From NCBI GenBank assembly GCA_043767805.1, contig JAYUGC010000036.1, positions 1-64,000 on the forward strand: a DNA stretch of 64,000 nt, given 5' to 3'. The notes below the pieces were generated by a model, which was not told the origin of the DNA, searched no databases, and saw only the letters and a program-made list of their open reading frames with translations. Origin of the DNA: Pseudomonadota bacterium (GTDB lineage: Bacteria > Bdellovibrionota > FAC87 > UBA2466). Below are positions 6,701-55,688 of the stretch, piece after piece; the stretch's first letter is position 1, and every line of letters begins with the position of its first letter. A program made the position numbers and the translations under genes.

Positions 6701-7369
6701 ATGAAGCTGAATTTGGGATTTTTGCGGTCGTTGATTTTGGTCTCGGGTCTCGTCGTTTTCGGTATGTCGGCTCACGCCGACGAAACCAAGAAGGAAGAGA
6801 CCAAGGTCGTTCGTAAGACGGAAATCAATCCGTACAAGATGGGCTTCGGCGTCCAGGCCGGTCTTGCCATCGGCAATGCCAATCTCGAGCCGGTGACCGA
6901 GAGCTCCAATCGCACGGGCTTTACCTTGGGCGGTTACGCGGAAGTTCCGCTCCTTCCCGGCTTTCTCTATTTCCAGCCGGAAGTGAACTATCTCCAAAAA
7001 GGCGCGTCGAATGGCCATTTCGGCTCTCAAGCCACGGCGAGGCTCAGCTATCTCGAAATGCCGTTACTCGCGAAAATCAAGTTGATGGTGCCTCGCGCGC
7101 GGCCTTTCGTGCTGGCGGGTCCGACGCTGGCTTACTTGGTCTCGGGCAGCATCGAAGGCGCCGGCGGCAACTTCGACCGCAGCCGTTTCAATAACGTCGA
7201 TATCGGCTTGCTCTTGGGCGCGGGCTTCAGCTTTCAGCTGGGCGACACGCTCAACTCGTCCGAGATGTCCGTCTCCCTGCGCTACACCCGCGGATTGAAC
7301 AACCTGGACTCCGGCTCCAACGAGTGGAAGTCCAACGTGCTCGGTCTTCTGGTCGGCATTCAGATCTAA
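6701..7369 (+). CDS. Outer-membrane beta-barrel (porin family/PorT-like) protein
   Basis: Signal peptide (AHA), QPEVNYLQKG, YLEMPLLAK, amphipathic strands. Confidence 0.8.
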   Translation: MKLNLGFLRSLILVSGLVVFGMSAHADETKKEETKVVRKTEINPYKMGFGVQAGLAIGNANLEPVTESSNRTGFTLGGYAEVPLLPGFLYFQPEVNYLQKGASNGHFGSQATARLSYLEMPLLAKIKLMVPRARPFVLAGPTLAYLVSGSIEGAGGNFDRSRFNNVDIGLLLGAGFSFQLGDTLNSSEMSVSLRYTRGLNNLDSGSNEWKSNVLGLLVGIQI

Positions 7370-8076
7370 TCCGTCCGTTCCCAATCGATCGGGTTTTTGC
7401 CGAGTTTTTTGAGGATGGCGTTCGCCTTCGAGAAGGGCCGACTACCGAAAAATCCGTTATAAGCGGACAGCGGCGACGGGTGGGCCGATTCAATCACGAA
7501 GTGGCGTTTATTCGTGATGAGCGCCTTCTTTTTTCGAGCAGGCGCGCCCCAGAGAATGAAGATCAGCGGCACTTCGCGCTCGTTCAATAAACCGATGGCG
7601 CGGTCGGTGAAGACTTCCCAGCCGTGATCTTTGTGCGAGTGGGCCTGACCCATGCGTACCGTAAGAACGGTATTGAGAAGCAGTACGCCCTGGTCCACCC
7701 AGTGGCTCAGCTCCGATTTCGTGCGATCCACGGGCTTACCGAGATCGGCCTCGATTTCCTTGAAGATGTTCACCAGGCTTGGCGGCTTGGGCTTTAGCTC
7801 ATTGGGAACCGCGAAGCAAAGGCCGACTGCTTGACCCGGTCCGTGATACGGATCTTGTCCGAGGATAACGACTTTGACGTCCTCGTAGTCGAGACTCTGC
7901 AGGGCTCGAAGCACGCGATCCCGACGCGGAAATATCCTCTTTCCGGAGTTGTACTCCGTCCGCAAAAATTGAGTCAGACCCGAGAAATATTCTTTCTCGG
8001 CCTCGGGCGCGAGAATCTCTCTCCAGCGAGGAGGCAAGTTCTTCGGAAAGGCGGAAGCGGACTGGGATTCGGCCAT
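7366..8076 (-). CDS. ung: Uracil-DNA glycosylase, family 1
   Basis: GQDPYH, PPSLVNI, LLLNTVLTV, HPSPLS. Confidence 0.97.
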   Translation of the reverse strand: MAESQSASAFPKNLPPRWREILAPEAEKEYFSGLTQFLRTEYNSGKRIFPRRDRVLRALQSLDYEDVKVVILGQDPYHGPGQAVGLCFAVPNELKPKPPSLVNIFKEIEADLGKPVDRTKSELSHWVDQGVLLLNTVLTVRMGQAHSHKDHGWEVFTDRAIGLLNEREVPLIFILWGAPARKKKALITNKRHFVIESAHPSPLSAYNGFFGSRPFSKANAILKKLGKNPIDWERTD

Positions 8077-8192
8077 GCCCGTTTCATAGCGCAGGACCGT
8101 GGGTCCGCCAAGAATTTCGGTGGAGGCCGCGCGCTGTCAGCTCGCGGTGCCGAAACGCCGTCTTAGGATGAGCTTTAACGTTAAATAGGAGA

Positions 8193-8294
8193 TCAATCCG
8201 ACCGGGCCGAAGAGCAGGGTACCCCGAAGAGAGTGAGCGCGGTCGACACGAGGATACCACCAATGATGGCAAGGCCCATCGGGCGTCGCGATGG
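8193..8294 (-). pseudogene. Fragment matching the last TM helix of an RND (AcrB/CzcA) transporter
   Basis: Minus-strand translation PSRRPMGLAIIGGILVSTALTLFGVPCSSARSD*. Confidence 0.65.
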
Positions 8295-8295
8295 G

Positions 8296-8685
8296 TTAGA
8301 CCGCGGTATTCAGAGCGGGTTTCCGAGTGTAGCGATAGGCCCACGCAATGAGTAAAAGCTGCATCGGAAGGCGAAGCCACAGTAAAGCCGGTGGCGCGGG
8401 AGTGTCGCCCAAAGAGATTTGGTGAATCGCCATGTACAGGTTCGCCGGAAACACGGCGACGTAGAGTGCGATGAGCCCCCAGGCAGCTTTGCGCTGAAGC
8501 GCCGGAATCAAAAGTCCCATGCCGCCCAAGATCTCGAAGAAGCCGCTGATATAGACCAGGGCAAGGGGCGCCGGTAAGTAATCCGGAACGATGCGCACGA
8601 ACGGACCGGGGTCGGCCAAGTGAAGCGCCCCGGCCAAGGTCATTAGACCAGCGAGTAACCAACGGGGAATCTTTCTTAGCGCCAT
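8296..8685 (-). CDS. DoxX-family membrane protein
   Basis: AGALH, IVPDYLP, SGFFEILGG, VFPANLYMA, LRLPMQ. Confidence 0.85.
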   Translation of the reverse strand: MALRKIPRWLLAGLMTLAGALHLADPGPFVRIVPDYLPAPLALVYISGFFEILGGMGLLIPALQRKAAWGLIALYVAVFPANLYMAIHQISLGDTPAPPALLWLRLPMQLLLIAWAYRYTRKPALNTAV

Positions 8686-8701
8686 GCAGACAAAGTACTC
8701 G

Positions 8702-9139
8702 CTACGCACCAGCAGGGGAAGCGGAGAGGTGGGCGCGGCAATAAGTCTCGAGGCGCTCCAAAACGTCGGTGAAGCCGTCGAGATCCGCGGGCTTCACGAT
8801 GAAAAGATTCGCGCCTAGCGCCATGCATTTCGAGATGTCTTGCTGGGCTTGCGAAGTGGTCAAGATAATCACGGCAACCTCCTTCAGGGGCTCCGTTTGT
8901 CGAATCTCCTGAAGCACTTCGAGCCCGTCTTTGCGGGGGAGATTTAAATCGAGCAGGATGAAATCAGGCCGCGGCTTTTGGTTCAAATACTCTATCGCCG
9001 CCTCGCCGTCCGAAACGAACGAGACATTGAACTTTCTCTGACTCTTATGCAGCATGTCCGCGATGAGCCATTGATCGGCGGCATTATCCTCCACCGATAG
9101 CAATTCCAGTGGATTTGAAGCGTCGCGCAGTAAGCTCAT
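8702..9139 (-). CDS. Single-domain response regulator (Rcp1-like)
   Basis: VEDN, PDFILLDLNLPRKDG, ILTTS, VKP. Confidence 0.92.
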   Translation of the reverse strand: MSLLRDASNPLELLSVEDNAADQWLIADMLHKSQRKFNVSFVSDGEAAIEYLNQKPRPDFILLDLNLPRKDGLEVLQEIRQTEPLKEVAVIILTTSQAQQDISKCMALGANLFIVKPADLDGFTDVLERLETYCRAHLSASPAGA

Positions 9140-9224
9140 AGATTTTAGCGGCCCGTGCTTTTAAGTTACGCCTGCTTCCCGTCAGGATCAATATCTGGCT
9201 AATCGTTTGCATAAGCTCAAGCTC

Positions 9225-9452
9225 ATGAAGCACTTCAAAAAACCGGAATTTCTGCGGCGGCTGGGCTCCTGGATCCTCAAGTTACGGAAATCCAAGGGAA
9301 TAGGTCAGGATCGGCTCACCTCGGAAGCGGGGCTGGCCAAAGGCACGGTTAGTAAAATCGAAGGGGGAGACGTGGACCCAAAAGCTTCCACCCTGGTGAA
9401 ATTGGCCAACGCCTTGGACGTTCCACCGGCAAAGATCCTGGCTATGGAGTAG
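9225..9452 (+). CDS. XRE-family HTH transcriptional regulator
   Basis: LRKSKGIGQDRL...TVSKIEGG..DPKASTLVKLANALDV. Confidence 0.85.
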   Translation: MKHFKKPEFLRRLGSWILKLRKSKGIGQDRLTSEAGLAKGTVSKIEGGDVDPKASTLVKLANALDVPPAKILAME

Positions 9453-9461
9453 TAGATTCCC

Positions 9462-10628
9462 TCAGGCTTCCGCGGCGATCGCGGTGCTAGAAAGATACGC
9501 CTCGACCGAGGGCAAGGTGAAGGAAAAAGTCGTTCCGCTGCCTTCCTGGGACTCCACCCAGATGCGTCCCAAGTGGCGCTCGACGATCTTCTGGCAGACG
9601 GCTAGGCCGATTCCCGATCCCGGATATTCCTTAGGGTTGTGCAGCTTTTTGAAAATCCGGAAAATTCGGGCCGAATGCTGCGGGTTGATGCCGATGCCGT
9701 TGTCGGTCACCGAAAAGAGCACACGACCGTCCCGATTTTCCCCTTTGACGACGATTTCCGGCGTGGTGCCCGGCCGGCGAAACTTGATGGCGTTGTGCAG
9801 AAGATTTTGGAAAAGCTGAAGGATTTGGGTCTCATCGCCCGCGATATCGGGAAGATCCACTTCGATGCGAATGTGGGCGCCGGCCTCCTTGATACCAATT
9901 TCCAGAATACCCACGACTTCGTCCACGAGCGCGTTCATGCTTATGGGAGCGAGCTGCACTTCAGAAGCGCCAACTTGCGCGTAAGTGAGAAGCGCCAAGA
10001 TTAATTCACGCATGCGGCGAGTGCCGTCCACTGCAAAGGCTATGTAGTCCTTGGCGGTGTCGTCAAAGACGCTCGCGTATTTCCGGTCGAGCAGCTGTAC
10101 ATAGCTGGTGACGGCCCGGAGCGGTTCTTGGAGATCGTGGGAAGCGATGGAAGCAAACTCGTTCAACTCGGCATTGCTGCGCTCGAGCCTGAGCAGCAAC
10201 TCTTTCGTCTCGTACTGTCTTTGACGATCGGCGAGGGCAGCTTTGAGAACGCTGATCAAAGTCGCGGTCCGCACCGGCCGCTCGAGGAGGGTCGCGTTTC
10301 TGAGCGGGTCCAGAATGCTCATCACTCGCGAACTTCCTTGGGCGATTTGTCCAGCGCTCGTCACAACTAGAAAAGGAAGATGAGACCATGGCGGCTCTTT
10401 GCTAAGTTTCATTTTTAGCCGGTCCATCCCGGCCGGGGCGAGCGTTTCCCCGGCGATCAGGACGGCGCCCGCGCCCCGGTCGAGCTCTTCACAAAGCTGA
10501 TTCAGATCCGTGCAAACGTCGGCTTGGACGAGCGCTTTTTTCAAAACCGCAGCCGAGAGCAGGGCGTCTCGCTTGAGAGACGCGAGAACGAGGACTCGCA
10601 TTTCGAGACCGGACCGATTTAGTGTCAT
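9462..10628 (-). CDS. Sensor histidine kinase with degenerate N-terminal receiver-like domain
   Basis: H-box ASHDLQEPLR, N-box QNLLHNAIKF, DNGIGI, GSGIGL. Confidence 0.93.
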   Translation of the reverse strand: MTLNRSGLEMRVLVLASLKRDALLSAAVLKKALVQADVCTDLNQLCEELDRGAGAVLIAGETLAPAGMDRLKMKLSKEPPWSHLPFLVVTSAGQIAQGSSRVMSILDPLRNATLLERPVRTATLISVLKAALADRQRQYETKELLLRLERSNAELNEFASIASHDLQEPLRAVTSYVQLLDRKYASVFDDTAKDYIAFAVDGTRRMRELILALLTYAQVGASEVQLAPISMNALVDEVVGILEIGIKEAGAHIRIEVDLPDIAGDETQILQLFQNLLHNAIKFRRPGTTPEIVVKGENRDGRVLFSVTDNGIGINPQHSARIFRIFKKLHNPKEYPGSGIGLAVCQKIVERHLGRIWVESQEGSGTTFSFTLPSVEAYLSSTAIAAEA

Positions 10629-26815: not shown

Positions 26816-28278
26816 TTCGTCTTTCCTTTTTTCATGGGGACCGCGGTCATCGCCGCCTTCCACAAATAATGAGTGGCGTAAGCGCGCCACGGTTGCCAGC
26901 CTTGCGCTCGCGTACCGGCCTTTTGCTTTTTCAGCTCCCGTCCCAATATCAGATCGGTCTCGGGAAACGCGTCGGGATCTCTTAACGCGCGCATGGCGAT
27001 GTACTCCGCGGTCCAAGGGCCAATTCCACGAATGGCGAGTAGAGCCGCCCGTTGCTCCGAGCCGTCGGAGGCGGGCGATAAGCGCACTTTGCCTTCGACT
27101 ACCGCCTGGGAAAGCGCCACGAGCGCCGCCGCTTTGGTGCGCGGCACGCCGAAGGTCGCCGGATCGGCCTTCGCTAGCCGAAGCGGAGTCGGAAAAAGAT
27201 GAAGTAGTTTCGACGCGGTCTCGAACCGTAGCGGCTTTCCATAACGCACGACGATTCTGCCCAAAGACGTGCAAGCTCCTCGAATGGAAACCTGCTGGCC
27301 CATGATGGCGCGGATGGCGACCTCATAGCCGTCCCAGCCGCCGGGCACTCGCAAGCCGGGAGTCAGCTCGATAAGCTTTTTTAACGGTAAATCCTGGCTC
27401 AAATGAGTAGAGATCGTGAGTGGGTCCGCTTCGAGATCAAAAAGAAAGCGTACCTTCTCAACGATATCCAGCAGGGAAGTGCCGACCGCTCCGTGGAGAG
27501 ATAATTCGAGGAGGCTAGCTTCGGGCTTCGGCCGGACGGAGAGAAACCCAGGCACTCCGTTCGCTTCAAACGTCCTCGAGTACACGCCTTCCTCGAAGGT
27601 CTCGATTCCCGCAATGGCGTGGCTCGAAAGAAACGCAAACATGTCGTCCCAAGCAAGCGGAGGCCGATAGGGAAGTCGCAGGACTAACGCGGTGTCGGTT
27701 TTTTCCTTGGGACCGCGCTTTTGGCGCGCCTCCGTCGGAGAGCGATGAAAGCGTTTCTTGAAGGCGTCATTGAACCGGCGCACGGACTCAAAGCCCGCGT
27801 TGAAAGCGATTTCGGTCATGGGAAGGCTCGTCTCATCGACGAGCTGGCGCGCGAAATCGAGCCGGCGTAGAAGCGCTACGGCATGGGGTGGAGCGCCGAG
27901 ATGCTCTACGAAGAGCCGGCTCAGATGCCGTTCGGTAACGCCGAACTGATCCGCTAAAGCAGGGAGGCCCTCTCTGTCGAGTGCGCCTAGGCTGATGAGC
28001 CTCAAAGCACGCGAGACGGTGGCCGTCGTGCCGAGCCAAGCCGGTGTTCCCGGGCTGGTTTCGGGGCGGCAACGAAAACAGGGGCGGAATCCCGCTTCTT
28101 CCGCCGCGGCGGCGGTTTGAAAGAAGGCAACGTTCTTCTTGTGGGGCGTGCGCGCGGGACAAATGGGTCGGCAGTAAATTCCCGTGGTGGTGACGCCAAA
28201 AAAAACCCGCCCGTCGAAGCGGCGGTCTTTCGTGACTAGAGCCCGGTAGAAGGGGCTTTGAGGAGAGGTCCTTGCCAT
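26812..28278 (-). CDS. alkA: Ada-AlkA fusion (Ada Zn domain, AraC HTH, 3-methyladenine glycosylase)
   Basis: GIYCRPIC, GFRPCFRC, GQQVS, HhH GIGPWTA, WRAYA. Confidence 0.92.
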   Translation of the reverse strand: MARTSPQSPFYRALVTKDRRFDGRVFFGVTTTGIYCRPICPARTPHKKNVAFFQTAAAAEEAGFRPCFRCRPETSPGTPAWLGTTATVSRALRLISLGALDREGLPALADQFGVTERHLSRLFVEHLGAPPHAVALLRRLDFARQLVDETSLPMTEIAFNAGFESVRRFNDAFKKRFHRSPTEARQKRGPKEKTDTALVLRLPYRPPLAWDDMFAFLSSHAIAGIETFEEGVYSRTFEANGVPGFLSVRPKPEASLLELSLHGAVGTSLLDIVEKVRFLFDLEADPLTISTHLSQDLPLKKLIELTPGLRVPGGWDGYEVAIRAIMGQQVSIRGACTSLGRIVVRYGKPLRFETASKLLHLFPTPLRLAKADPATFGVPRTKAAALVALSQAVVEGKVRLSPASDGSEQRAALLAIRGIGPWTAEYIAMRALRDPDAFPETDLILGRELKKQKAGTRAQGWQPWRAYATHYLWKAAMTAVPMKKGKTK

Positions 28279-47638: not shown

Positions 47639-48304
47639 ATGTCCTATCACTTACCTTTTTTTAAGAACCGGCCCGAAGCGGGAGATCAACTCGCTCAACG
47701 CCTGATCCGATACCAACGAGACTCGAAAGCCGTGGTCTTAGCCTTGCCTCGCGGTGGTGTTCCCGTCGGCTATGAGGTCGCCATGGAGCTAGGCTTGCCG
47801 CTCGACGTCTTTGTCGTCAGAAAGCTTGGGTTTCCCGGGCATCAAGAGCTCGCCATGGGAGCGGTCGCCAGCGGCGGCGTGCGCGTCCTAACTAAAGAAA
47901 TCGTCGATCTCTACGGAGTTTCCGCCTCTACTCTGGAATCGATCACCGAGGCCGAGACCGTAGAGCTCGTTCGCAGAGAGCTTGCCTACCGGCGAGGGGA
48001 GCCACCGCGAGAGGTCGCGGGCCAAACCGTCATCCTGGTAGACGATGGGCTCGCGACCGGATCCACTATGCTCGCCGCGATCAGAGCGCTGCGCAAACGA
48101 AGGCCCGCGCGTCTAATCGCCGCGGTGCCCGTGGCCGCGCTTGCCGCGGTGGAGCTGCTATCGTCGGAAGCCGACGAGGTGGTGTCCGTCGAGACGCCCA
48201 AGCCCTTTTACTCCGTAGGGCAGTGGTACGAGGACTTCACCCAGACAACCGACGCGGATGTTCGCTTTTATTTGAAGCAAGCGCGCCGCCGAACGGCGGC
48301 CTAA
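47639..48304 (+). CDS. Phosphoribosyltransferase family protein
   Basis: LPRGGVPV, ELAMGA, PRPP loop VILVDDGLATGST. Confidence 0.9.
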   Translation: MSYHLPFFKNRPEAGDQLAQRLIRYQRDSKAVVLALPRGGVPVGYEVAMELGLPLDVFVVRKLGFPGHQELAMGAVASGGVRVLTKEIVDLYGVSASTLESITEAETVELVRRELAYRRGEPPREVAGQTVILVDDGLATGSTMLAAIRALRKRRPARLIAAVPVAALAAVELLSSEADEVVSVETPKPFYSVGQWYEDFTQTTDADVRFYLKQARRRTAA

Positions 48305-48369
48305 AGCCTCATTCCTAAACCGACGGAAGTAGTTCAATCATCCCGCGAGCCAAGCGCTTTCCGAGTCTT

Positions 48370-48876
48370 TTAGGCGACGAGCTTCAGCTTGTGCTTGCCG
48401 CTCTTAATCTCGTAACGCCCCATCAATTCCGCGGTTCCGATGACGTGGCCTTCCACTTCGGTCAGTAGCTCGTCCTTCGTCATGCCGGGAGCCAAGTCCA
48501 CCGCGGCATTCAGCGCGAGGAGCCGGAAAAAATAGCGATGGGGACCGTCTCCCGGAGGCGGCAGCGGCCCGCCGTAACCCAGATGACCAAACGAGTTCAA
48601 GCCTTGCCGCGCGTGCGGAGGTAGCTCGAGGGTCTCCGACTGCGGGATGCCTTCCGGGAGCTTCGTGACGTTTCCTGGAATTTTATACAGCACCCAGTGC
48701 ACGAAAGGCTCGGCTTTCGGCGCGTCTGGATCTTCGGCGATGAGTACGAGCTCTTTGGTGCCGTCGGGAATGCCCGCCCATTCGAGAGAGGGGCTTTGAT
48801 CCTGGCCTTCACCAGTCAGGTCTTTAGGGATGGTTTCTCCACTGGAGAAGGAATGTGAGCTCAGAGTAAATGCCAT
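48370..48876 (-). CDS. YbhB/YbcL (PEBP) family protein
   Basis: DPDAP, FVHWV, GYGGPLPP, HRYFF. Confidence 0.92.
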   Translation of the reverse strand: MAFTLSSHSFSSGETIPKDLTGEGQDQSPSLEWAGIPDGTKELVLIAEDPDAPKAEPFVHWVLYKIPGNVTKLPEGIPQSETLELPPHARQGLNSFGHLGYGGPLPPPGDGPHRYFFRLLALNAAVDLAPGMTKDELLTEVEGHVIGTAELMGRYEIKSGKHKLKLVA

Positions 48877-48899
48877 TTTGGTTCTAAGTCCTTTTTGGA

Positions 48900-49073
48900 T
48901 TACGCGACTTTTTTCACCGCGTACTTGCGCTTATTGTGCTCGAACTCGTCTTTGCAGGTGTTACTGCAGAAATAGATCTTCTGTCCCTCGAACTCGGCGG
49001 TGTCGGCCGCGTCCTCGGGCTGCACTTCCATCCCGCACACGGGATCTTTGCCGTGGAAGTCGAATTCAATCAT
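48900..49073 (-). CDS. YHS-domain protein, 57 aa (absent from ORF track)
   Basis: MIEFDFHGKDPVCGMEV...KIYFCSNTCKDEF; AAGGAG RBS. Confidence 0.85.
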   Translation of the reverse strand: MIEFDFHGKDPVCGMEVQPEDAADTAEFEGQKIYFCSNTCKDEFEHNKRKYAVKKVA

Positions 49074-49130
49074 AGCGTTTCTCCTTTAGGCTTCAGTTTT
49101 GTTGCAGACTGTAACTACCCGGGTACCGGA

Positions 49131-49778
49131 TCAGCTAGCCATGCGCCATTCGCGCCCGGACGCGCCCGTCTTCTCGAACTCTTTCCAGCGAAGCGCTACT
49201 TCGGGCCAGTTCACGAGGTGCCAGAAAGTTTTGACGTACTCAAGCCGGCGATTCTGGTGCTTCAGATAGTAAGCATGCTCCCAAAGATCGAGCACCAGAA
49301 GCGGGGTCATGCCTTGCGAGAGCGGGCTCTCGTGATCTCTCGTCGTGAGAAGCTTCAGCTCGCCTGCTGGCGTGGTCGCAAGCCACGCCCAGCCGTTCGA
49401 AAAATGCTCGGTGGCGAGCTTGGAGAACGTCTCCTTGAAAGTCTGCAGGGAGCCGAAGGTACTCGTGATTAATCCGTCGAGGTCGCCTTCGGGGCCGCTC
49501 TGCGATTGCGGCGTGAGCACCGTCCAAAAAAGGCTGTGGTTGGCATGTCCGCCGGCGTTGTGAAGCACGTCCGTCCGGATCGAAGCGGGAAGGCTGTCGA
49601 TGGATTTCAAAAGGTCCTCGACCTTCTTCTTCTCACCGGGGTGCTTGTCCATGACCTCGTTCAACTTATCGACGTAGGTTTTGTGATGCCCATCGTGATG
49701 GACTTTCATGGTGGCCTCGTCGATGAGCGGCTCAAGCGCATTGTAAGCGTAAGGCAATCTCGGCAGTACGTATTTCAT
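49131..49778 (-). CDS. Fe/Mn superoxide dismutase
   Basis: HHDGHH, NHSLFW, GWAWL, DLWEHAYY. Confidence 0.93.
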   Translation of the reverse strand: MKYVLPRLPYAYNALEPLIDEATMKVHHDGHHKTYVDKLNEVMDKHPGEKKKVEDLLKSIDSLPASIRTDVLHNAGGHANHSLFWTVLTPQSQSGPEGDLDGLITSTFGSLQTFKETFSKLATEHFSNGWAWLATTPAGELKLLTTRDHESPLSQGMTPLLVLDLWEHAYYLKHQNRRLEYVKTFWHLVNWPEVALRWKEFEKTGASGREWRMAS

Positions 49779-49803
49779 TTCAGCTCCCTTGCTCTGTTCT
49801 CCA

Positions 49804-49836
49804 TGCAGAGCCCGTGCCGATGGTATGGCCGATGCA
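49804..49836. promoter_or_regulatory. Back-to-back divergent sigma54-type promoters (SOD / DUF2171)
   Basis: Minus strand CGGCACGGGCTCTGCA (49804-49819); plus strand TGGTATGGCCGATGCA (49821-49836). Confidence 0.55.
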
Positions 49837-49873
49837 CGTTCTTTCGGATCTAACCCACAAAAGGAGGCCCCGC

Positions 49874-50146
49874 ATGCTGACGAGTCAGATCAAAAAAAAT
49901 CTATTCGTGGAGGCACGCTCTACCCGCGGCGAGCTCTACGGCACTCATGTTGGAACGGTGGATCATTTGGACGGAGACAAGTACATCAAGCTCACGCGCA
50001 AAGACTCACCCGATCACCGCCATCATTGGATTCCCGTCGACTGGGTGGAGCGTATCGAAGACGAGACGGTATTCCTAAACCGAACCACCCAAGAGTTCTA
50101 TCACGGCCAGCTCAACGAGCGGCCACCCCTCAAGAAGCACTCTTAA
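49874..50146 (+). CDS. DUF2171 protein
   Basis: HVGTVDHLDG..IKLTRKDS...HHWIPVDWV; AGGAGG RBS. Confidence 0.85.
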   Translation: MLTSQIKKNLFVEARSTRGELYGTHVGTVDHLDGDKYIKLTRKDSPDHRHHWIPVDWVERIEDETVFLNRTTQEFYHGQLNERPPLKKHS

Positions 50147-50162
50147 AAGGTAGGCCTACCTT

Positions 50163-50861
50163 TTAAGACGAATGGGGGCGCCACCGGCGGCGCGAGATGT
50201 GGAGTGTGGACTCGTAGTGAATTTGTTGCTCGACCATGTGACCGAACACATCGAGGAGGTTTTTGTGAGCGGTCTGATTCTCGGGGTACATGGAATCGAG
50301 TAGCCAGTGGATGGCCTCAATCGTGGAATAACATTCGGGAGTAGGTTGGTGGCGCACCCGAAACGTGGAAGGCGTCGAAGGCGTGAAACGAATCGTAGGA
50401 AGATGCGCGAGATTTTTGCTATAGCGCCGCACTCGTTTTGCCTGCGCCCAGGTCGCGTCGATGATGAAAATGACGAGTCGCTTTCCCGGCGGAAAAATTG
50501 CGCGCCGGCCTTCCGGTGAGAGTGAACTTACATCCGTCGCATTGCGCGTGGGATAGAGTACCACGGGGTAGCACTCCGGATCGGCAAGCAGCGCATTCAC
50601 TTTCGTGTTGTGCGTGTAGTTGCTTCCTTCGAGCAAAAGCGAGTTCGGCAAACAAAGGTGTGCCATGCGGCCGGTCGCAATCGAGCGGCGCGCTTCGTGC
50701 CGGTGGATCAAAATCACGAAAAGCGGGTCCGGAGTGAAGGCTTGGATTTTCGGGCAGTAACAACCTACCAGGGGGCGGCGGCAGCGCTCACACTTTGGCC
50801 GCGGGCCCTTGATGGCCGCGGCTCGCCGCTCTTTCTCCAGTAGGTAGGTCTGTAAATTCAT
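50163..50861 (-). CDS. DTW-domain tRNA aminocarboxypropyltransferase (TapT-like)
   Basis: CERC..CYC, H..E, ATG, DATW, STIEA. Confidence 0.85.
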   Translation of the reverse strand: MNLQTYLLEKERRAAAIKGPRPKCERCRRPLVGCYCPKIQAFTPDPLFVILIHRHEARRSIATGRMAHLCLPNSLLLEGSNYTHNTKVNALLADPECYPVVLYPTRNATDVSSLSPEGRRAIFPPGKRLVIFIIDATWAQAKRVRRYSKNLAHLPTIRFTPSTPSTFRVRHQPTPECYSTIEAIHWLLDSMYPENQTAHKNLLDVFGHMVEQQIHYESTLHISRRRWRPHSS

Positions 50862-50912
50862 GAGGGGCGAATATAGGGGGCGGGGCCTCGAAAGTCACAA
50901 AAGCTTCAAATA

Positions 50913-51029
50913 ATGCTGACCGTTCCTCAGTTTCGGGTGGTCGCCGCCATCGGGCGGGGCATGGCCCGCGCCAGCGAGTTAGCCCGCTTTCTCGGAGTCA
51001 GCTAGGCCGCCATGTCCAAGACGATTGCC
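50913..51029 (+). pseudogene. MarR-like HTH remnant with in-frame stop, ending at the repeat element
   Basis: MLTVPQFRVVAAIGRGMARASELARFLGVS*AAMSKTIA; TAG at 51003-51005. Confidence 0.7.
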
Positions 51030-51102
51030 AAAAGGTGTGTGGATACTTTTAGCTGGCGGCGGCACGGGATTTGCCTTAGCTAAAAGTATCCACACACCTT
51101 TT
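51030..51102. repeat. REPIN-like inverted repeat, copy 2
   Basis: Perfect 25-bp arms aaaaggtgtgtggatacttttagct (51030-51054, 51078-51102), 23-nt spacer. Confidence 0.9.
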
Positions 51103-51859
51103 AGCCGGTTCGGCGGAAGGGGAGCGCGTTTTCGGCGAGAGAGTGCAGGGTCATGGCGTTTGGGAGAGCGGCGCCCATCGCGGTGTTATCGAAGATGCAC
51201 CAAACTTCGACCCCTTGCTCGGACCAGGCGAGCAAGTCTGAGAAAAGATTTTCGAGCTGAGGCCCGGAGTAAGCCGAGTAATACATCTGCGGCGATCCAT
51301 GCAGCCGGTAGTACACGAGCCGCTTGGACGCTAGCGGTTGCGCGGCGGCCGGCACCGGATCGGCGGCCACCCGCGCGATGTCGAGCTTCGTGAAAAGCAC
51401 TTCGGCTTCCGGTGTAAACCAGGTCCGATGGCGTGGCTCGCAAACAATGGCGCCGCGAAACCGAAGCCGAAGCTCGGACAAGAAAGTGTGCGCGACTTTC
51501 GGCTCCAGCCAAAGGCTCGGCGGCAATTGAACGAGGAGCGGCCCCAATTTCTTACCCAAGCCCGCGACCTGATCGAGAAAGGCCACGAGCAGTTCGCTTG
51601 CGCCTTTAAGCCGATGCACGTGGGTAATGGCTTTCGGAACTTTCACCGAGAAGCGGAAATCTTCCGGGACGGACTCCGCCCAACGGCGGTAAGTCTCCCA
51701 ACGATGAGGCCGATAGAAGGAGGAGTTAATCTCGACCGAGGGGAATCTTCCAGCGTAGCGATGTAAATGCGTGCCTTCTCCCGGAAATTCCTCGGCAAGA
51801 ATCGTGGGCAGCGCCCAGCCGGCGCATCCCGTTCTAATGCGTTTCGATTTTGGCGCCAT
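51101..51859 (-). CDS. DUF72 (YecE/UPF0759) protein
   Basis: GCAGW, VEINSSFY, FSVKVPKAITH, QLPPS, EPRH, RLHG, IFDN. Confidence 0.92.
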   Translation of the reverse strand: MAPKSKRIRTGCAGWALPTILAEEFPGEGTHLHRYAGRFPSVEINSSFYRPHRWETYRRWAESVPEDFRFSVKVPKAITHVHRLKGASELLVAFLDQVAGLGKKLGPLLVQLPPSLWLEPKVAHTFLSELRLRFRGAIVCEPRHRTWFTPEAEVLFTKLDIARVAADPVPAAAQPLASKRLVYYRLHGSPQMYYSAYSGPQLENLFSDLLAWSEQGVEVWCIFDNTAMGAALPNAMTLHSLAENALPFRRTG

Positions 51860-51860
51860 C

Positions 51861-52652
51861 TCAATCCTCTCGTTCGAGATGTAGCAAAGACAGTACCAAC
51901 TCCGGCGTCAGCCGGATGGATTCTTCCCGAACCCAGAGGGGGAGAGCATCGGCATCTTCCAACCAAAAAGCCGCCCGCAAGGGAACGGCTTGGATATCGG
52001 TGCGCGAAGAGGTGAGGAGCTGGTGTGCGGCGGAGAGTTTGTCCGGCTGCTGCTTCATCTCGATGTCGGGAGAAACATTCGCGCCTTTGGCCCACCAGAT
52101 CCGGCCCTTGGGGGCGTAGCAAACTAAAATGAGAGGAGCGGCGTCCAGTTCCACCCAGCGAATCGCGGTGGCGGTGAGGCTCGTCTGAAAGAGTTTTCCC
52201 ATCGCCTCGATGTTGGCCAAGCAGGGCGGCCGCTCCGCCATGAATTTCGTGCACAAGGGCCGGGGTAGAAGGAGATCCACGGCGTATCGGTTCGCCCGCC
52301 GTTCCGGATTCTTTTCCCCGCGGTTCAGCGGCTGCACCAGCGCGTCTCCGCCACAGGCGAACGCGGTCTTGCCCCGATCCCACATCCAGTGACCCAGCTC
52401 GTGCGCCGCCGAAAAGCGCTGGCGAGGCACGCTCGACTGGCTGTTCACGGTGATGAAAGCTCTCTTCCCGTAACCGATGAGGCGCGCTTCGCTGCCCTCC
52501 ATGGGCTCGTAAAGGACGGTAGCGCCACAATGCTGAGCGATCGCCTCGATTTGAATATCGCCCGGGGTCTCGATACCCAGCTCGAGAAGAAGATCGTCGG
52601 CGGAGACATGGGGCTCGGCGCTTACCGCGGCCAAGTCAGCGTCGATCGCCAT
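51861..52652 (-). CDS. ImmA/IrrE-family (DUF955) Zn metallopeptidase without fused HTH
   Basis: RQRFSAAHELGH, ERRANRYAVDLLLP, TSLTATAIR. Confidence 0.9.
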   Translation of the reverse strand: MAIDADLAAVSAEPHVSADDLLLELGIETPGDIQIEAIAQHCGATVLYEPMEGSEARLIGYGKRAFITVNSQSSVPRQRFSAAHELGHWMWDRGKTAFACGGDALVQPLNRGEKNPERRANRYAVDLLLPRPLCTKFMAERPPCLANIEAMGKLFQTSLTATAIRWVELDAAPLILVCYAPKGRIWWAKGANVSPDIEMKQQPDKLSAAHQLLTSSRTDIQAVPLRAAFWLEDADALPLWVREESIRLTPELVLSLLHLERED

Positions 52653-53070
52653 TCAATACCCCTAACGCTTCGAGCTGTTTCAGAAGGCTTTCCACATCGG
52701 CGTCGGAGAGGCTCTTGAACTCACGGTGTTGCAGAGTCAAAAACGTCTTCTCTCCTTGGGGGAATCTTTGAAAAATGGAATTGAGTAGCTCACGCCGGTC
52801 GGATTCCCCCGAGGGGAGCGTGTAGCTGCGGTCTTTATAACGGCGGACCTCTTCGCGATAAACAGCGAGCGCGTTATTCAACGCTTTTTGCTTAAAAGAT
52901 CGGACACCATCCAGGAGACAGGCTCTAACTTGTTCGGCTTTGTGAGAGGCCTCGGGGCCTGCGTCTCTGAGCACTTCCGCGTCTGTATCCTGGAGTGAGC
53001 TGTCGGCCAGCATCGCAAACAGCTTTTGTATTTCTTCCGTGTCCCTATTTTCTGGATATATAGATGCCAT
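52636..53070 (-). CDS. Hypothetical helical protein, candidate anti-sigma/peptidase substrate
   Basis: 144-aa ORF with GGAG RBS between the sigma-like gene and the peptidase; 17-nt overlap with the peptidase. Confidence 0.7.
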   Translation of the reverse strand: MASIYPENRDTEEIQKLFAMLADSSLQDTDAEVLRDAGPEASHKAEQVRACLLDGVRSFKQKALNNALAVYREEVRRYKDRSYTLPSGESDRRELLNSIFQRFPQGEKTFLTLQHREFKSLSDADVESLLKQLEALGVLNGDRR

Positions 53071-53084
53071 GCTAACTCCCTACC

Positions 53085-53693
53085 TCAAGAGGTTTGTGCG
53101 AGGCGTTCCACGCCTCGTCTCATGCGCTTTAAAGCGCTCTCATAATTTTTTCTGTCCAGGCTAGCGTTAACTTGGATTTCAGGGCCGGTGAGGCCTTCAC
53201 TCAGTCCGTCTAAGATGCTCATGACGTCTTCGTCATGCTCGAAATGCGCTTTGATGCGACGAAGCTGTTGCTGAGCTTCAAGGACTCTTTCTACGCTGGG
53301 GCTCGATGAAGAAGCGGAGCTGATGGGGCTGAACTTACCGGACTCATCACTGACATCGGACTCGTTCAGTACGCTTACCGTGCGCTCTCTCTCGTTCCAA
53401 TGACTCGAGAGACTTCTCATTACGCCCACGAGATGCGTAAAAAAACCGACCTTCCTGCGCTTCCAGCGCCTCTCGCCACCCAATGTGGCTACCACCGCTT
53501 CCTCGAGCAAATCCTCATGGTCCCGGCCTAATGTCCGCCCGCCTAGGGAACGGATACGATAACGCGCGTAACGCTCCAGTCTCAGCAGCTCTTCCTCAGT
53601 CAGCGAGCGAATGGCGGACTGAACTTCGTCGATAGACGCAGCTTGCTCTTCGGTCTCAGAACGCAAAACTACGTTATCAGGGACTTCGATCAT
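53085..53693 (-). CDS. Sigma70/ECF-like factor
   Basis: Region 2-like L.RYA...HEDLLEEAV...W...F..HL.GVMRS; region 4-like GLTGPEI...YESALKRMRR. Confidence 0.7.
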   Translation of the reverse strand: MIEVPDNVVLRSETEEQAASIDEVQSAIRSLTEEELLRLERYARYRIRSLGGRTLGRDHEDLLEEAVVATLGGERRWKRRKVGFFTHLVGVMRSLSSHWNERERTVSVLNESDVSDESGKFSPISSASSSSPSVERVLEAQQQLRRIKAHFEHDEDVMSILDGLSEGLTGPEIQVNASLDRKNYESALKRMRRGVERLAQTS

Positions 53694-53863
53694 CCTAAGT
53701 CCCATATAACACAGTGCCGGCCACCCATAAATTCCGGACGCGTCGAAGAAAAAAATTCCTTTTGTCCAAAAAAGAGAAACGAACGGCATTCACACTCGTG
53801 AATACAGAAAACACGAATAGAGACAAACAAACGGGAACTGAGCACTCGGGAAGGAATCCATCC

Positions 53864-54943
53864 ATGGCTAAAACGAAAGAACCGCAAAGAATGCAAGTGC
53901 GAGTCGGGCAGGATCGCACCTTGGCCGGGCGGAGCGGCCGCTTAGACAAATGGGTGCAGTCGATGCCCCAAGATCTTAGTCAAAAGAAGCCTACTAGCAT
54001 TTCGGCGGAGCTGGCCACGATGCAGGCGAACGCCTTGAAGGCGCGCTCGCAATGGGAAGACTTGAAAGAACAGGCGGTTCTGGCCTACGAGTCCGGCTTA
54101 CTCCCGAGGTCCATCGATAGCCGCGAGAGAGCGGTCACCATCGCGCTCATGGGCAAAGAGCTCGGCGTCGCTCCCATGCAGGCCCTCTGCGGGATTTACG
54201 TCGTCAACGGCATGGTGGCGCTTCGGGGAAGCTTGATGTTGCGGCTTATCTACGAGCGAGTTCAAGGCGCTCGTATCACGGTGCTGACGGCGCCTGACCG
54301 ATCCGAGCAGGAATGCGCGGTCGAGATGACTCGTCCGAACGGAACGCCTCAGGTATTTCGTTATACGGTGGAAGACGCGAAAAAAGCGGGCTTCATGAAT
54401 AAGCCGATTTGGCAGCAGCACACGGCAACCATGTTGCGGTGGGCGGCCATTCGCACCGGAGCCCGAGTCGTCTTCGCCGATGCCATCGCGGGATGTTACA
54501 TGGAAGACGAGATCCCAGCCTCGGATACGGTGAGCATGCCGGTCGAAACTCCGGTCTTCGCTTCCGCTCCCGTCTCGGTGCAGGCCCAGTCCGCGCCGGC
54601 AACGGCGGCGGCAAGCGCGCCGAAAGTCGAGACGCCGGTGGCCGCGCCGAAGGTAGAAGTCAACGAGCGTACGGATTTCGAAGCCGCGCCTTTGTTTGAC
54701 TCGTCGCCGTCTCGTCCTCGTACGGTAGTGGCTTCGCTCCCGCGCACGGTAACCAAAAAGCGAGTAAGCCGGCTTTACGCCATCGCTTACCAGCACAAAT
54801 GGAGTCGTCAGGAAGTGGGAGTGGCCGTCGATAAGTGGTTCCAGAAACGGGATCCTCGGCAGTTAAATCGCGCCGAGTACGACCGGATCTGCCAATACCT
54901 CTTGGACAACGGCACGAAGGACATGTTGAACGAAAGAGCTTGA
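53864..54943 (+). CDS. RecT/Red-beta-like single-strand annealing protein
   Basis: SGLLP, GKELGVAPMQAL.GIYVVNG, YTVEDAKKAG, W.QH...ML...A...AR..F.D...G.Y..DE; Ala/Pro linker and small C-terminal domain. Confidence 0.75.
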   Translation: MAKTKEPQRMQVRVGQDRTLAGRSGRLDKWVQSMPQDLSQKKPTSISAELATMQANALKARSQWEDLKEQAVLAYESGLLPRSIDSRERAVTIALMGKELGVAPMQALCGIYVVNGMVALRGSLMLRLIYERVQGARITVLTAPDRSEQECAVEMTRPNGTPQVFRYTVEDAKKAGFMNKPIWQQHTATMLRWAAIRTGARVVFADAIAGCYMEDEIPASDTVSMPVETPVFASAPVSVQAQSAPATAAASAPKVETPVAAPKVEVNERTDFEAAPLFDSSPSRPRTVVASLPRTVTKKRVSRLYAIAYQHKWSRQEVGVAVDKWFQKRDPRQLNRAEYDRICQYLLDNGTKDMLNERA

Positions 54944-55055: not shown

Positions 55056-55688
55056 TTAGGCGCGCTGGAAAGCGAGAGCCATGTTCGTGGGCAGGGGGAA
55101 TTTTTTACCCGCCAAAGTCATCTGGTACTCGGAAGCGATTTCATTTAGCCACTCCGGCCTAAACAGATTCACCCGGAAGCCTTGAACCCATTTTTCGAAG
55201 CGATAGTACGTTCCCCCTAGGCCGACGCGCGGGCACAAGACGACGAGCCTGCCACCAGGGGCGACCAGGCGGCAGAGGTTTCTGAAAGACGATTCGGGAT
55301 TACTGACGAAATCGAGGCTTCCCGCGCAGATGACTCTGTCGAAGGTGCGCTTTAAGACGAGACTCTCCAAATCATCGACCCACGCCTCGTCGAGCCGGCG
55401 CGCTACTTCTTCGATCATATCGGGCGCGGCATCGAAGGCGCAGACGTAAGCGCCCCCACGTTTGGCTTCCAGCGCATAGAAGCCCGAGCCGCATCCCGCA
55501 TCGATGACCGCGCGGGCTCCGGTGAGCTCGCAAAGACTCAAAACCGCCGACCGCTCCCGCCGTCTGGCAAGGCCAAGAGCGCCTCGCTTGACGTGCGTGT
55601 CGTATTTCCGAGCCAGGGTGTTGTAATAAAGGACCGCCCGATCTCTATCGGCTGCCGTAACGTGGAACTCAGCTGTCGCGTTCATCAT
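55056..55688 (-). CDS. Class I SAM methyltransferase
   Basis: VIDAGCGSG, FDRVIC, APGG. Confidence 0.85.
   Translation of the reverse strand: MMNATAEFHVTAADRDRAVLYYNTLARKYDTHVKRGALGLARRRERSAVLSLCELTGARAVIDAGCGSGFYALEAKRGGAYVCAFDAAPDMIEEVARRLDEAWVDDLESLVLKRTFDRVICAGSLDFVSNPESSFRNLCRLVAPGGRLVVLCPRVGLGGTYYRFEKWVQGFRVNLFRPEWLNEIASEYQMTLAGKKFPLPTNMALAFQRA

Follow-up and report, generated by a model that had tools for sequence, protein, structure and literature searches.

We examined a 64,000-nucleotide stretch of DNA from a bacterium of the Bdellovibrionota (GenBank assembly GCA_043767805.1, contig JAYUGC010000036.1, positions 1 to 64,000), hereafter the window, which encodes a candidate regulatory cassette built around an M78 (ImmA/IrrE) metallopeptidase. 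Four tightly coupled minus-strand genes encode a sigma factor-like protein, a small partner protein of 144 amino acids (aa), the peptidase and a DUF72 protein, and a RecT-like gene is transcribed divergently from them (Table 1). The first three genes probably constitute a switch in which the peptidase cuts the partner protein and thereby releases the sigma factor. The original prediction for this locus, made from the sequence alone, described all five open reading frames (ORFs) and their junctions exactly: a 14-nt gap between the sigma and partner genes, a 17-nt overlap between the partner and peptidase genes, and 1 nt from the peptidase stop to the DUF72 start. The sigma start at 53693 is backed by homologues, in which M-x-E is invariant. 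The predicted divergent spacer of about 170 bp also stands, at 170 nt (53694-53863), but the frame of the RecT-like gene opens at 53714 and its start was reset. ATG 53864, preceded by GGAAGGA, is the most likely start and gives the 170-nt spacer.

Table 1. Coordinates of the genes and predicted elements of the cassette in the window.
Feature	Position	Strand	Basis
DUF72 gene	51101-51859	-	Pfam DUF72, E=5e-56
CapP-family M78 (ImmA/IrrE) metallopeptidase, 263 aa	51861-52652	-	PADLOC capP, Pfam Peptidase_M78
144-aa candidate anti-sigma: helical N-terminal body, no helix-turn-helix, CapH-type C-terminal tail	52636-53070	-	Profile and model
CapH-like tail of the 144-aa protein, residues 111-137 (LTLQHREFKSLSDADVESLLKQLEALG)	52660-52740	-	Conservation in 145 sequences
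Divergent ECF-type sigma factor, 202 aa	53085-53693	-	hhalign, fold matches
Predicted sigma-facing promoter CGTCC-N16-CGGCAC	53714-53740	-	Pattern match
Predicted cargo-facing promoter TGTCC-N16-CGGCAT	53763-53789	+	Pattern match
Perfect palindrome ATTCAC-N4-GTGAAT	53788-53803	none	Visible in sequence
Cargo gene, RecT-like, 359 aa	53864-54943	+	PHROG, tblastn

The peptidase matches the PADLOC capP model at E=1.6e-50 over model positions 8-242 of 242, the C-terminal sensor region included, and Pfam Peptidase_M78 at E=1e-11. Its sole PDB sequence match is CapP (7t5t, E=6.7e-7), aligned over residues 70-190. The zinc site HELGH lies at residues 84-88 and a downstream glutamate motif, ERRANRYA, at residues 117-124; ExxANxFA is a family motif of such peptidases. 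We classify the protein, by these matches, as a full-length CapP, which confirms the HELGH ImmA/IrrE peptidase of the original prediction. It is the sole copy in its genome, where we found no second CapP. CapP of Escherichia coli MS115-1 is a protease stimulated by single-stranded DNA (ssDNA) that cuts the helix-turn-helix (HTH) repressor CapH at F82|R83, in the first helix of its C-terminal oligomerisation domain, and this cleavage relieves repression of an immune operon transcribed in the opposite direction (Lau et al., 2022, bioRxiv 10.1101/2022.04.27.489752).

The protein encoded directly upstream of CapP here is not an HTH protein. A Pfam scan of the 144-aa protein returned no family at E<=0.01 and no HTH (sole row DUF883, E=0.056), in agreement with the earlier claim that the locus has no HTH repressor gene. 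A full HMMER profile search identified 769 representative clusters of this partner family at E<=1e-3 and 422 at E<=1e-10; the clusters are 50% identity representatives and the count of 769 is a minimum. A word-index search for homologues had yielded 8 relatives, a strong underestimate. Family members are nearly all 135-160 aa long, and those that are named are annotated ‘hypothetical’.

The most conserved part of the partner family is its tail, which reads L-T-x-Q-[H/F/Y]-R-[D/E]-[F/L]-x-x-L-[S/T]-D-x-D-[V/I]-E-S-x-L-x-Q-L-x-x-L-G. Among 145 sequences, conservation reaches 98% at T112, 95% at Q114, 99% at R116, 100% at L136 and 96% at G137, and residue 115 is aromatic in 88%. Several observations connect this tail to CapH. 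First, the PADLOC capH model matches the 144-aa protein weakly (E=0.0031) over residues 91-137. Second, 48 of the 145 aligned family members match capH at E<=0.01 (best 2.8e-5, individual statistics weak), and the next family is matched by 4 members. Third, in six HTH CapH proteins of the canonical type from this phylum, the C-terminal end reads F-[F/Y]-R-[G/D]-[F/L]-x-x-L-[S/T/P]-x-x-D...Q-[I/M/V]-[D/E]-x-[L/I]-K. Finally, hhalign places H115-R116 of the 144-aa protein opposite the invariant F-R of canonical CapH in a modest alignment (E=1.2e-3, probability 18.9%, 52 columns). Because H115-R116 aligns with the mapped F82|R83 cut of CapH, we predict that CapP cleaves between H115 and R116 (codons 52723-52728). 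The predicted cleavage stretch is non-helical and exposed in a monomer model of the partner (predicted local distance difference test score 87.9).

As read from its sequence, the 144-aa protein is a CapH-type, presumably cleavable tail on a different, HTH-less body. Foldseek and VIA-align searches with the monomer model returned no solved fold match and no anti-sigma or HTH fold. PDB sequence searches with partner profiles and a sigma profile gave nothing meaningful and did not reach the solved C-terminal domain of CapH. We also detected no match to the partner by tblastn against plasmids and no relative in a viral-contig scan with alignment A3. There are hints that the family descended from CapH through remodelling of the N-terminal part. 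In hhalign, the conserved stretch L-P-x-x-x-x-R-R-x-L-L of the partner family (residues 85-100, about 52771-52818) lies opposite P-S-x-P-x-L-R-R-L-A, which ends the CapH HTH domain.

The 202-aa protein encoded upstream of the partner has the architecture of a sigma factor: sigma2 at about residues 20-111, a disordered linker at 107-129 and sigma4 at about residues 133-202. An hhalign comparison with the extracytoplasmic function (ECF) sigma factors of the same genome covers both sigma2 and sigma4 (probability 95.4%, E=1.8e-8, 141 columns), and the two regions have separate structural matches, with structures of classical ECF sigma/anti-sigma pairs among the hits. The sigma fold that the original prediction had proposed for this gene is thus supported by profile and structure alike. 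The protein falls below the curated cut-off of TIGR02937 (22.5 bits vs 42.9), which nine other proteins of the genome pass, and matches Pfam Sigma70_r2 at E=0.084. We assign it as a putative, very divergent ECF-type sigma factor. A scan of genome contigs with the sigma alignment returned one locus only.

We next considered 401 genomes of the phylum (G- and L-numbers denote the genomes and loci of this analysis). The partner profile matched in 6 of them, and the order sigma, partner, CapP is kept in all 5 of the other partner-bearing genomes. The same order occurs in 3 of 4 metagenome loci returned, the fourth being a spurious short match inside a 1711-aa protein. In all 8 other trio loci first found, the partner gene lies directly downstream of the sigma gene. 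The trio is conserved beyond the window and its gene order is not chance.

We identified CapP at E<=1e-20 at 30 places in 28 of the 401 genomes. At 13 places, an HTH_3 protein of 100-156 aa lies directly upstream and there is no sigma gene. At 11 places, the gene upstream of CapP encodes a non-HTH protein of 135-162 aa, and the gene before that one a protein of 194-262 aa (the window, numbered L021, and L022, L023, L026, L028, L029, L031, L032, L033, L035 and L038). Six of these 11 are strong for both hidden Markov models (HMMs), L022, L032, L033 and L035 are weak for one or both, and L031 is included by architecture alone. Among the remaining CapP places, L049 has a 188-aa protein with a weak match to the partner HMM, L048 has other proteins, and 4 have no upstream ORF by the rule used. 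All 13 proteins in the canonical CapH position match HTH_3 (3e-6 to 1e-17), whereas none of the 9 trio-type partners scanned matches an HTH family. An HTH CapH and the sigma-partner pair were never found together at any of the 30 places.

A maximum-likelihood tree of 27 CapPs places the window in an 8-row trio clade (support 99/98) and includes a second trio clade of 5 rows, L049 among them (100/100). All 7 long HTH-paired CapPs fall in one clade (100/98), with the trio-like L022 as sister, and the 6 short HTH-paired CapPs fall in a separate clade. Partner-type labels are clustered on this tree (0/500 shuffles as low). From their mutual exclusion and this clustering we conclude that the two partner types are alternatives and that CapP lineages track partner type. 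Host families are mixed within CapP clades, which indicates horizontal transfer. The window has a dip in GC content centred on the sigma gene and spacer (0.518 at 53001-54000 vs about 0.58-0.60 on either side), in keeping with a horizontally acquired cassette.

The spacer between the sigma and RecT-like genes contains two copies of a bipartite motif, GTCC-N16-CGGCAY. These are the only matches in the 64-kb window, against a mean of 0.33 in shuffled sequence, and 5/100 shuffles reach two matches anywhere in the window. The sigma-facing copy ends 20 nt before the sigma start codon and the cargo-facing copy ends 74 nt before the RecT-like ATG, and the two stand back-to-back, facing outward, and form a large inverted repeat in mid-spacer. 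With a slightly relaxed expression, we identified a back-to-back pair upstream of the sigma gene in four other loci (L018, L011, L013 and L014/L015); L018 has the same sequence as L007 and was counted once. The L011 pair reads TGTCG ... CGGCAT both ways, and the L014/L015 pair reads TCTCC ... GGGCAT and CGGCAA. L009 and L012 have the cargo-facing copy only. L010 has no CGGCAT, yet carries an exact twin, TGTCC-N16-AGAGCCTAG, in both directions. The N16 spacing is constant within copies, and the two -35-like words are separated by anything from 12 to 23 nt. In the window, L018, L014 and L010, about 20 nt lie between the end of the sigma-facing copy and the start codon; for cargo-facing copies, the distance to the start of the cargo is 21-75 nt across loci. 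Because the motif was derived from these same regions, the counts made with the relaxed expression are circular in part. Independent of this is the recurrence of the strict pattern, as taken from the window, in L009 and L013 (sigmas 40-52% identical) and in L018, each time at the homologous place.

We infer that the motif pair is a dedicated -35/-10 code that co-diverges with the sigma factor and provides for autoregulation and control of the divergent gene. An alternative, which we consider unlikely, is that the sigma-like protein is a DNA-bound two-domain repressor that sits on the bipartite sites and is oligomerised by the 144-aa protein as an adaptor. A CapP cut would then de-repress both genes and the housekeeping sigma would transcribe them. 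Such a split repressor would suit the CapH tail, for which oligomerisation required for DNA binding is the only role demonstrated (10.1101/2022.04.27.489752). It would also suit the inverted repeat, which lies where an operator would sit, the TATA-like words that several loci show, by eye, within a few nt downstream of CGGCAY on the sigma side, and the low score of the sigma-like protein against curated sigma models. However, the profile match to real ECF sigmas spans sigma2 as well as sigma4, and the combination of a fixed N16 within copies and a variable distance between them fits two promoter units better than one operator. The elements moreover face outward and end 20-75 nt before start codons. 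L010 argues in the same direction: its -10-like word is changed (AGAGCCTAG) with the -35-like word and spacing kept, as co-variation of sigma2 with the -10 element predicts.

The original prediction held that the freed sigma factor transcribes repair genes. We found no such regulon. Genome-wide, the motif has 43 loose and 7 strict matches, mostly inside coding frames, and the search showed no large regulon; the predicted output is the operon itself plus one RecT-like gene. The only other clean intergenic match is a strict TGTCC-N16-CGGCAT on contig C193 of G000 (27728-27754, locus L071), 25 nt ahead of the start codon for a secreted S8 subtilase of 772 aa, and it may be a second sigma target or a chance match.

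Other sequence elements were observed near the sigma genes. Upstream of the sigma-like genes of L031, L032 and L033 stands a bipartite back-to-back pair of another sequence, GGCAA-N14-CAGCAG..TAAT, forming a large inverted repeat (by eye). A second promoter code for this second sigma clade is suggested. In L012, CGTCC-N16-GGGCAT (7051-7077) occurs within the sigma gene at its 3' end, a short distance upstream of the partner gene, and may be an internal promoter or a chance match. The palindrome in the window’s spacer overlaps the end of the cargo-facing CGGCAT and would sit at the start of the cargo transcript. Its second arm is not conserved in the same-genus relative (L018), and it may be a local hairpin or an operator.

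The divergent cargo gene encodes a RecT-like core (about residues 35-221, 53966-54526), a Pro/Ala/Val-rich linker and a C-terminal module (residues 286-352, 54719-54919). The core matches five PHROG RecT/Bet-like families (best 1.4e-9), and tblastn of the cargo against phages returned 227 records, the best of them 32.5% identical across 45% of the query; RecT-like phage matches are 27-33% identical. The match to RecT in Pfam is weak (E=5.4e-4, 20.0 bits, under the 24-bit cut-off). The core is probably a distant RecT-like annealing domain. The gene is monocistronic, followed by a convergent methyltransferase gene (55056-55688), and its immediate neighbours include no partner exonuclease.

The C-terminal module is 61% identical (E=3e-29) to a stand-alone 115-aa protein encoded divergently from the sigma gene in L007/G171, and is found in the same divergent position in G203. 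Residues 8-60 of the cargo also resemble the N-terminus of the small stand-alone protein, although weakly (34% identity, E=9e-5). Because both ends of the window’s cargo resemble the small protein, the RecT core looks like an addition to it. The ancestral cargo in this bacterial family seems to have been the small protein. A linked RecT-like output, as originally proposed, stands in part: the gene is divergent and has a cargo-facing motif, but the cargo conserved in close relatives is the C-terminal module of about 70 aa and not RecT. The small stand-alone cargo proteins of relatives are 115-129 aa long (L007:1929-2276; L009:4311-4700). The module has no Pfam family, all its Atlas scores are below 0.9, and a word search among shorter proteins found none.

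Divergent cargo is present in the window, L009-L012 and L014. We identified an SMODS/CD-NTase gene in this position in L010 and a DUF3892 gene in L011; cyclic-oligonucleotide-based anti-phage signalling systems (CBASS) and DUF3892 are published CapH/CapP cargo classes (10.1101/2022.04.27.489752). Neighbours of other trio loci include an integrase. The surroundings of the metagenome trios L014 and L015 look like a defence island, with genes at L014:1301-2449, 6995-8182 and 8261-9598 and at L015:949-2514 for an HTH-M78 fusion, an Mrr-type restriction endonuclease, a RelA/SpoT-domain protein and a large protein with a deaminase domain.

These neighbourhoods raise the question of whether the window’s copy is a stranded remnant, that is, a mobile defence-island regulator that has lost its immune cargo and lies beside the RecT-like and DUF72 genes without regulatory meaning. 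The patchy spread (6/401 genomes), the mixed host families, the GC dip and the placement of other copies beside CBASS, DUF3892, Mrr, RelA/SpoT and integrase genes are all compatible with this. Against this, all three ORFs are intact and retain the conserved motifs of the catalytic site and the tail, the promoter copy that faces the cargo is undamaged, and the C-terminal module of the cargo keeps its divergent position in G171 and G203. We therefore see very little chance that the cassette is a remnant.

We think it fairly probable that the cassette is a working switch, in which ssDNA-triggered CapP cuts the CapH-type tail of an anti-sigma and frees a private sigma factor to transcribe its own operon and the RecT-like gene. 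Four directly computed features lead us to this reading: the CapH-type tail, the homology and fold of a true sigma2 plus sigma4 protein, the mutual exclusion of HTH CapH and the partner, and the twin outward-facing bipartite motifs. The identity of CapP and the conservation of the trio were likewise computed directly. We infer for this cassette the binding of sigma to partner, the cleavage, the ssDNA trigger, the use of the promoters and the induction by damage.

At rest, the helical and variable N-terminal body of the 144-aa protein would keep the ECF-type sigma inactive. The tail of the protein corresponds by homology to the CapH domain that oligomerises and is cut. Once DNA damage or a phage attack generates ssDNA, CapP would be activated, by analogy with the E. 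coli enzyme. Active CapP would cut the partner’s tail, most likely at H115|R116, and the cut partner would lose its hold on the sigma or be degraded. By analogy with CapH, a C-terminal cut may free the sigma by breaking an oligomer needed for tight binding, or by exposing the fragment to degradation. The freed sigma, with RNA polymerase, would then act at the two back-to-back (T)GTCC-N16-CGGCAY promoters of the spacer. From the sigma-facing promoter, sigma, partner and CapP would be expressed again, with read-through into DUF72, creating positive feedback. From the cargo-facing promoter, the RecT-like annealing protein fused to the small conserved module would be made. A LexA gene is present in the genome, and the cassette would be a second, parallel damage circuit beside it.

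The protease, anti-sigma and sigma could also answer to another signal, such as a phage protein, a different nucleotide ligand of the CapP C-terminal domain or a predation-stage cue in this Bdellovibrio-like organism. Activation by ssDNA is demonstrated for E. coli MS115-1 CapP alone (10.1101/2022.04.27.489752). The window’s CapP aligns with the solved CapP over residues 70-190 only, and LexA already serves the SOS response in this genome. The capP model match, however, extends through the C-terminal sensor region, and an ssDNA-annealing cargo suits a DNA-damage signal. We regard a different trigger as quite improbable.

The DUF72 gene, which the original prediction had placed among the coupled genes, does not belong to the conserved unit. 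DUF72 adjoins the trio in 0/8 other loci, the same-genus genome included. Read-through from the CapP operon into DUF72 is likely given the 1-nt spacing, and is likely incidental. In the same-genus genome G171, CapP is directly followed by a phosphoribosyltransferase (PRTase) gene whose counterpart in the window lies at 47660-48283. A comparison of window positions 47639-51859 with L008 (G171) shows that about 3.5 kb between CapP and the PRTase gene are not at this place in G171. In the window, these 3.5 kb encode DUF72, a DTW-domain protein, a 110-aa ORF, an Fe/Mn superoxide dismutase, a small zinc-ribbon-like ORF and a PEBP-like protein; G171 has a Cu/Zn superoxide dismutase further on. An empty-site comparison through the flanking methyltransferase gave only paralogue-like matches of about 47% identity.

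The cassette shares several features with CapH/CapP. The gene for an M78 peptidase of the ssDNA-activated family lies immediately downstream of the (here predicted) substrate gene, the substrate has a C-terminal tail with an aromatic-Arg site, and the cassette is divergent from its cargo, with CBASS and DUF3892 cargo classes at other loci. It differs in that the partner has no HTH and cannot itself bind DNA in the known way, in that a dedicated sigma is added and the logic would be activation by release instead of de-repression, and in that the cargo here is a RecT-like gene and not an immune operon. In IrrE(PprI)/DdrO of Deinococcus and ImmA/ImmR of ICEBs1, DNA damage likewise leads an M78 peptidase to cut a regulator of transcription, as we propose here. 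Their substrates, unlike the partner in this cassette, are HTH repressors, and no sigma factor is known to be involved. The IrrE/DdrO regulon of Deinococcus includes strand-annealing repair proteins, a parallel to the RecT-like cargo.

Co-transcription of a sigma and its anti-sigma, an autoregulated promoter and proteolysis of the anti-sigma as trigger are known from RseA/sigmaE and RsiW/sigmaW, and the same three features are predicted here from sequence. Most anti-sigmas of the RseA/RsiW type sit in the membrane and are cleaved by site-1 and site-2 proteases, whereas all components here would be cytoplasmic, with the protease in the same operon. A functional parallel is found in CalpL/CalpT/CalpS of type III CRISPR systems and TPR-CHAT/Csx30/CASP-sigma of type III-E systems, in which a signal-activated protease cuts an anti-sigma-like partner and an ECF-like sigma is released (10.1101/2023.06.23.546230). 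Their proteases (SAVED-Lon and a CHAT caspase-like enzyme) are unrelated to the M78 zinc peptidase and their signal is cyclic oligoadenylate or target RNA, in place of the ssDNA proposed here. PDB profile searches, Foldseek and VIA-align revealed no similarity of the partner to CalpT/Csx30-type partners. By analogy, the cassette would work like CalpLTS without being a member of that group, its protease being M78 CapP and not SAVED-Lon.

Sigma-like partners of such peptidases have been noted near anti-phage loci before, as the original prediction had stated. One sentence in Lau et al. (2022) reports 24 CBASS systems with a predicted sigma70-family sigma factor alongside capH and capP, and the paper offers no mechanism for them (10.1101/2022.04.27.489752). 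Our literature search for a CapP- or IrrE-cleaved anti-sigma, whose coverage excluded most subscription journals, found this sentence only.

More tentatively, the 144-aa protein could be the founding member of a family (at least 769 clusters) of cytoplasmic anti-sigmas in which a CapP-cleavable CapH tail is grafted onto a sigma-binding body. Together with a co-evolving clade of orphan ECF-like sigmas and its own -35/-10 code, (T)GTCC-N16-CGGCAT, such a family would form a portable, self-amplifying ssDNA switch. Here, in a predator-like bacterium, it would have been taken from phage defence to a LexA-independent damage response with RecT-type output, a sigma-based counterpart of Deinococcus IrrE/DdrO. 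We hold this wider proposal possible, although somewhat doubtful.

Three families of DNA-damage-activated controllers are known for bacterial immune operons; CapH/CapP, one of them, acts by destruction of a repressor. If the switch reading is true, this sensor protease and this cleavable tail have been put to a new use, the release of an activator in the form of a private sigma factor that has a promoter code of its own, and the logic shifts from de-repression to self-amplifying activation. This would be the third independent case of protease-gated sigma release in stress or defence, after CalpLTS and Csx29/30/31. In the sampled phylum, sigma-type and canonical loci occur in similar numbers (11 vs 13 of 30 CapP loci), and given the size of the partner family, many ‘hypothetical’ gene pairs could gain annotation at once. 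With its predicted promoter words and predicted scissile bond, H115|R116, the model lends itself to direct tests. Particular to this locus is its non-immune, RecT-like cargo, which suggests that not only immunity but also DNA repair can make use of the module.

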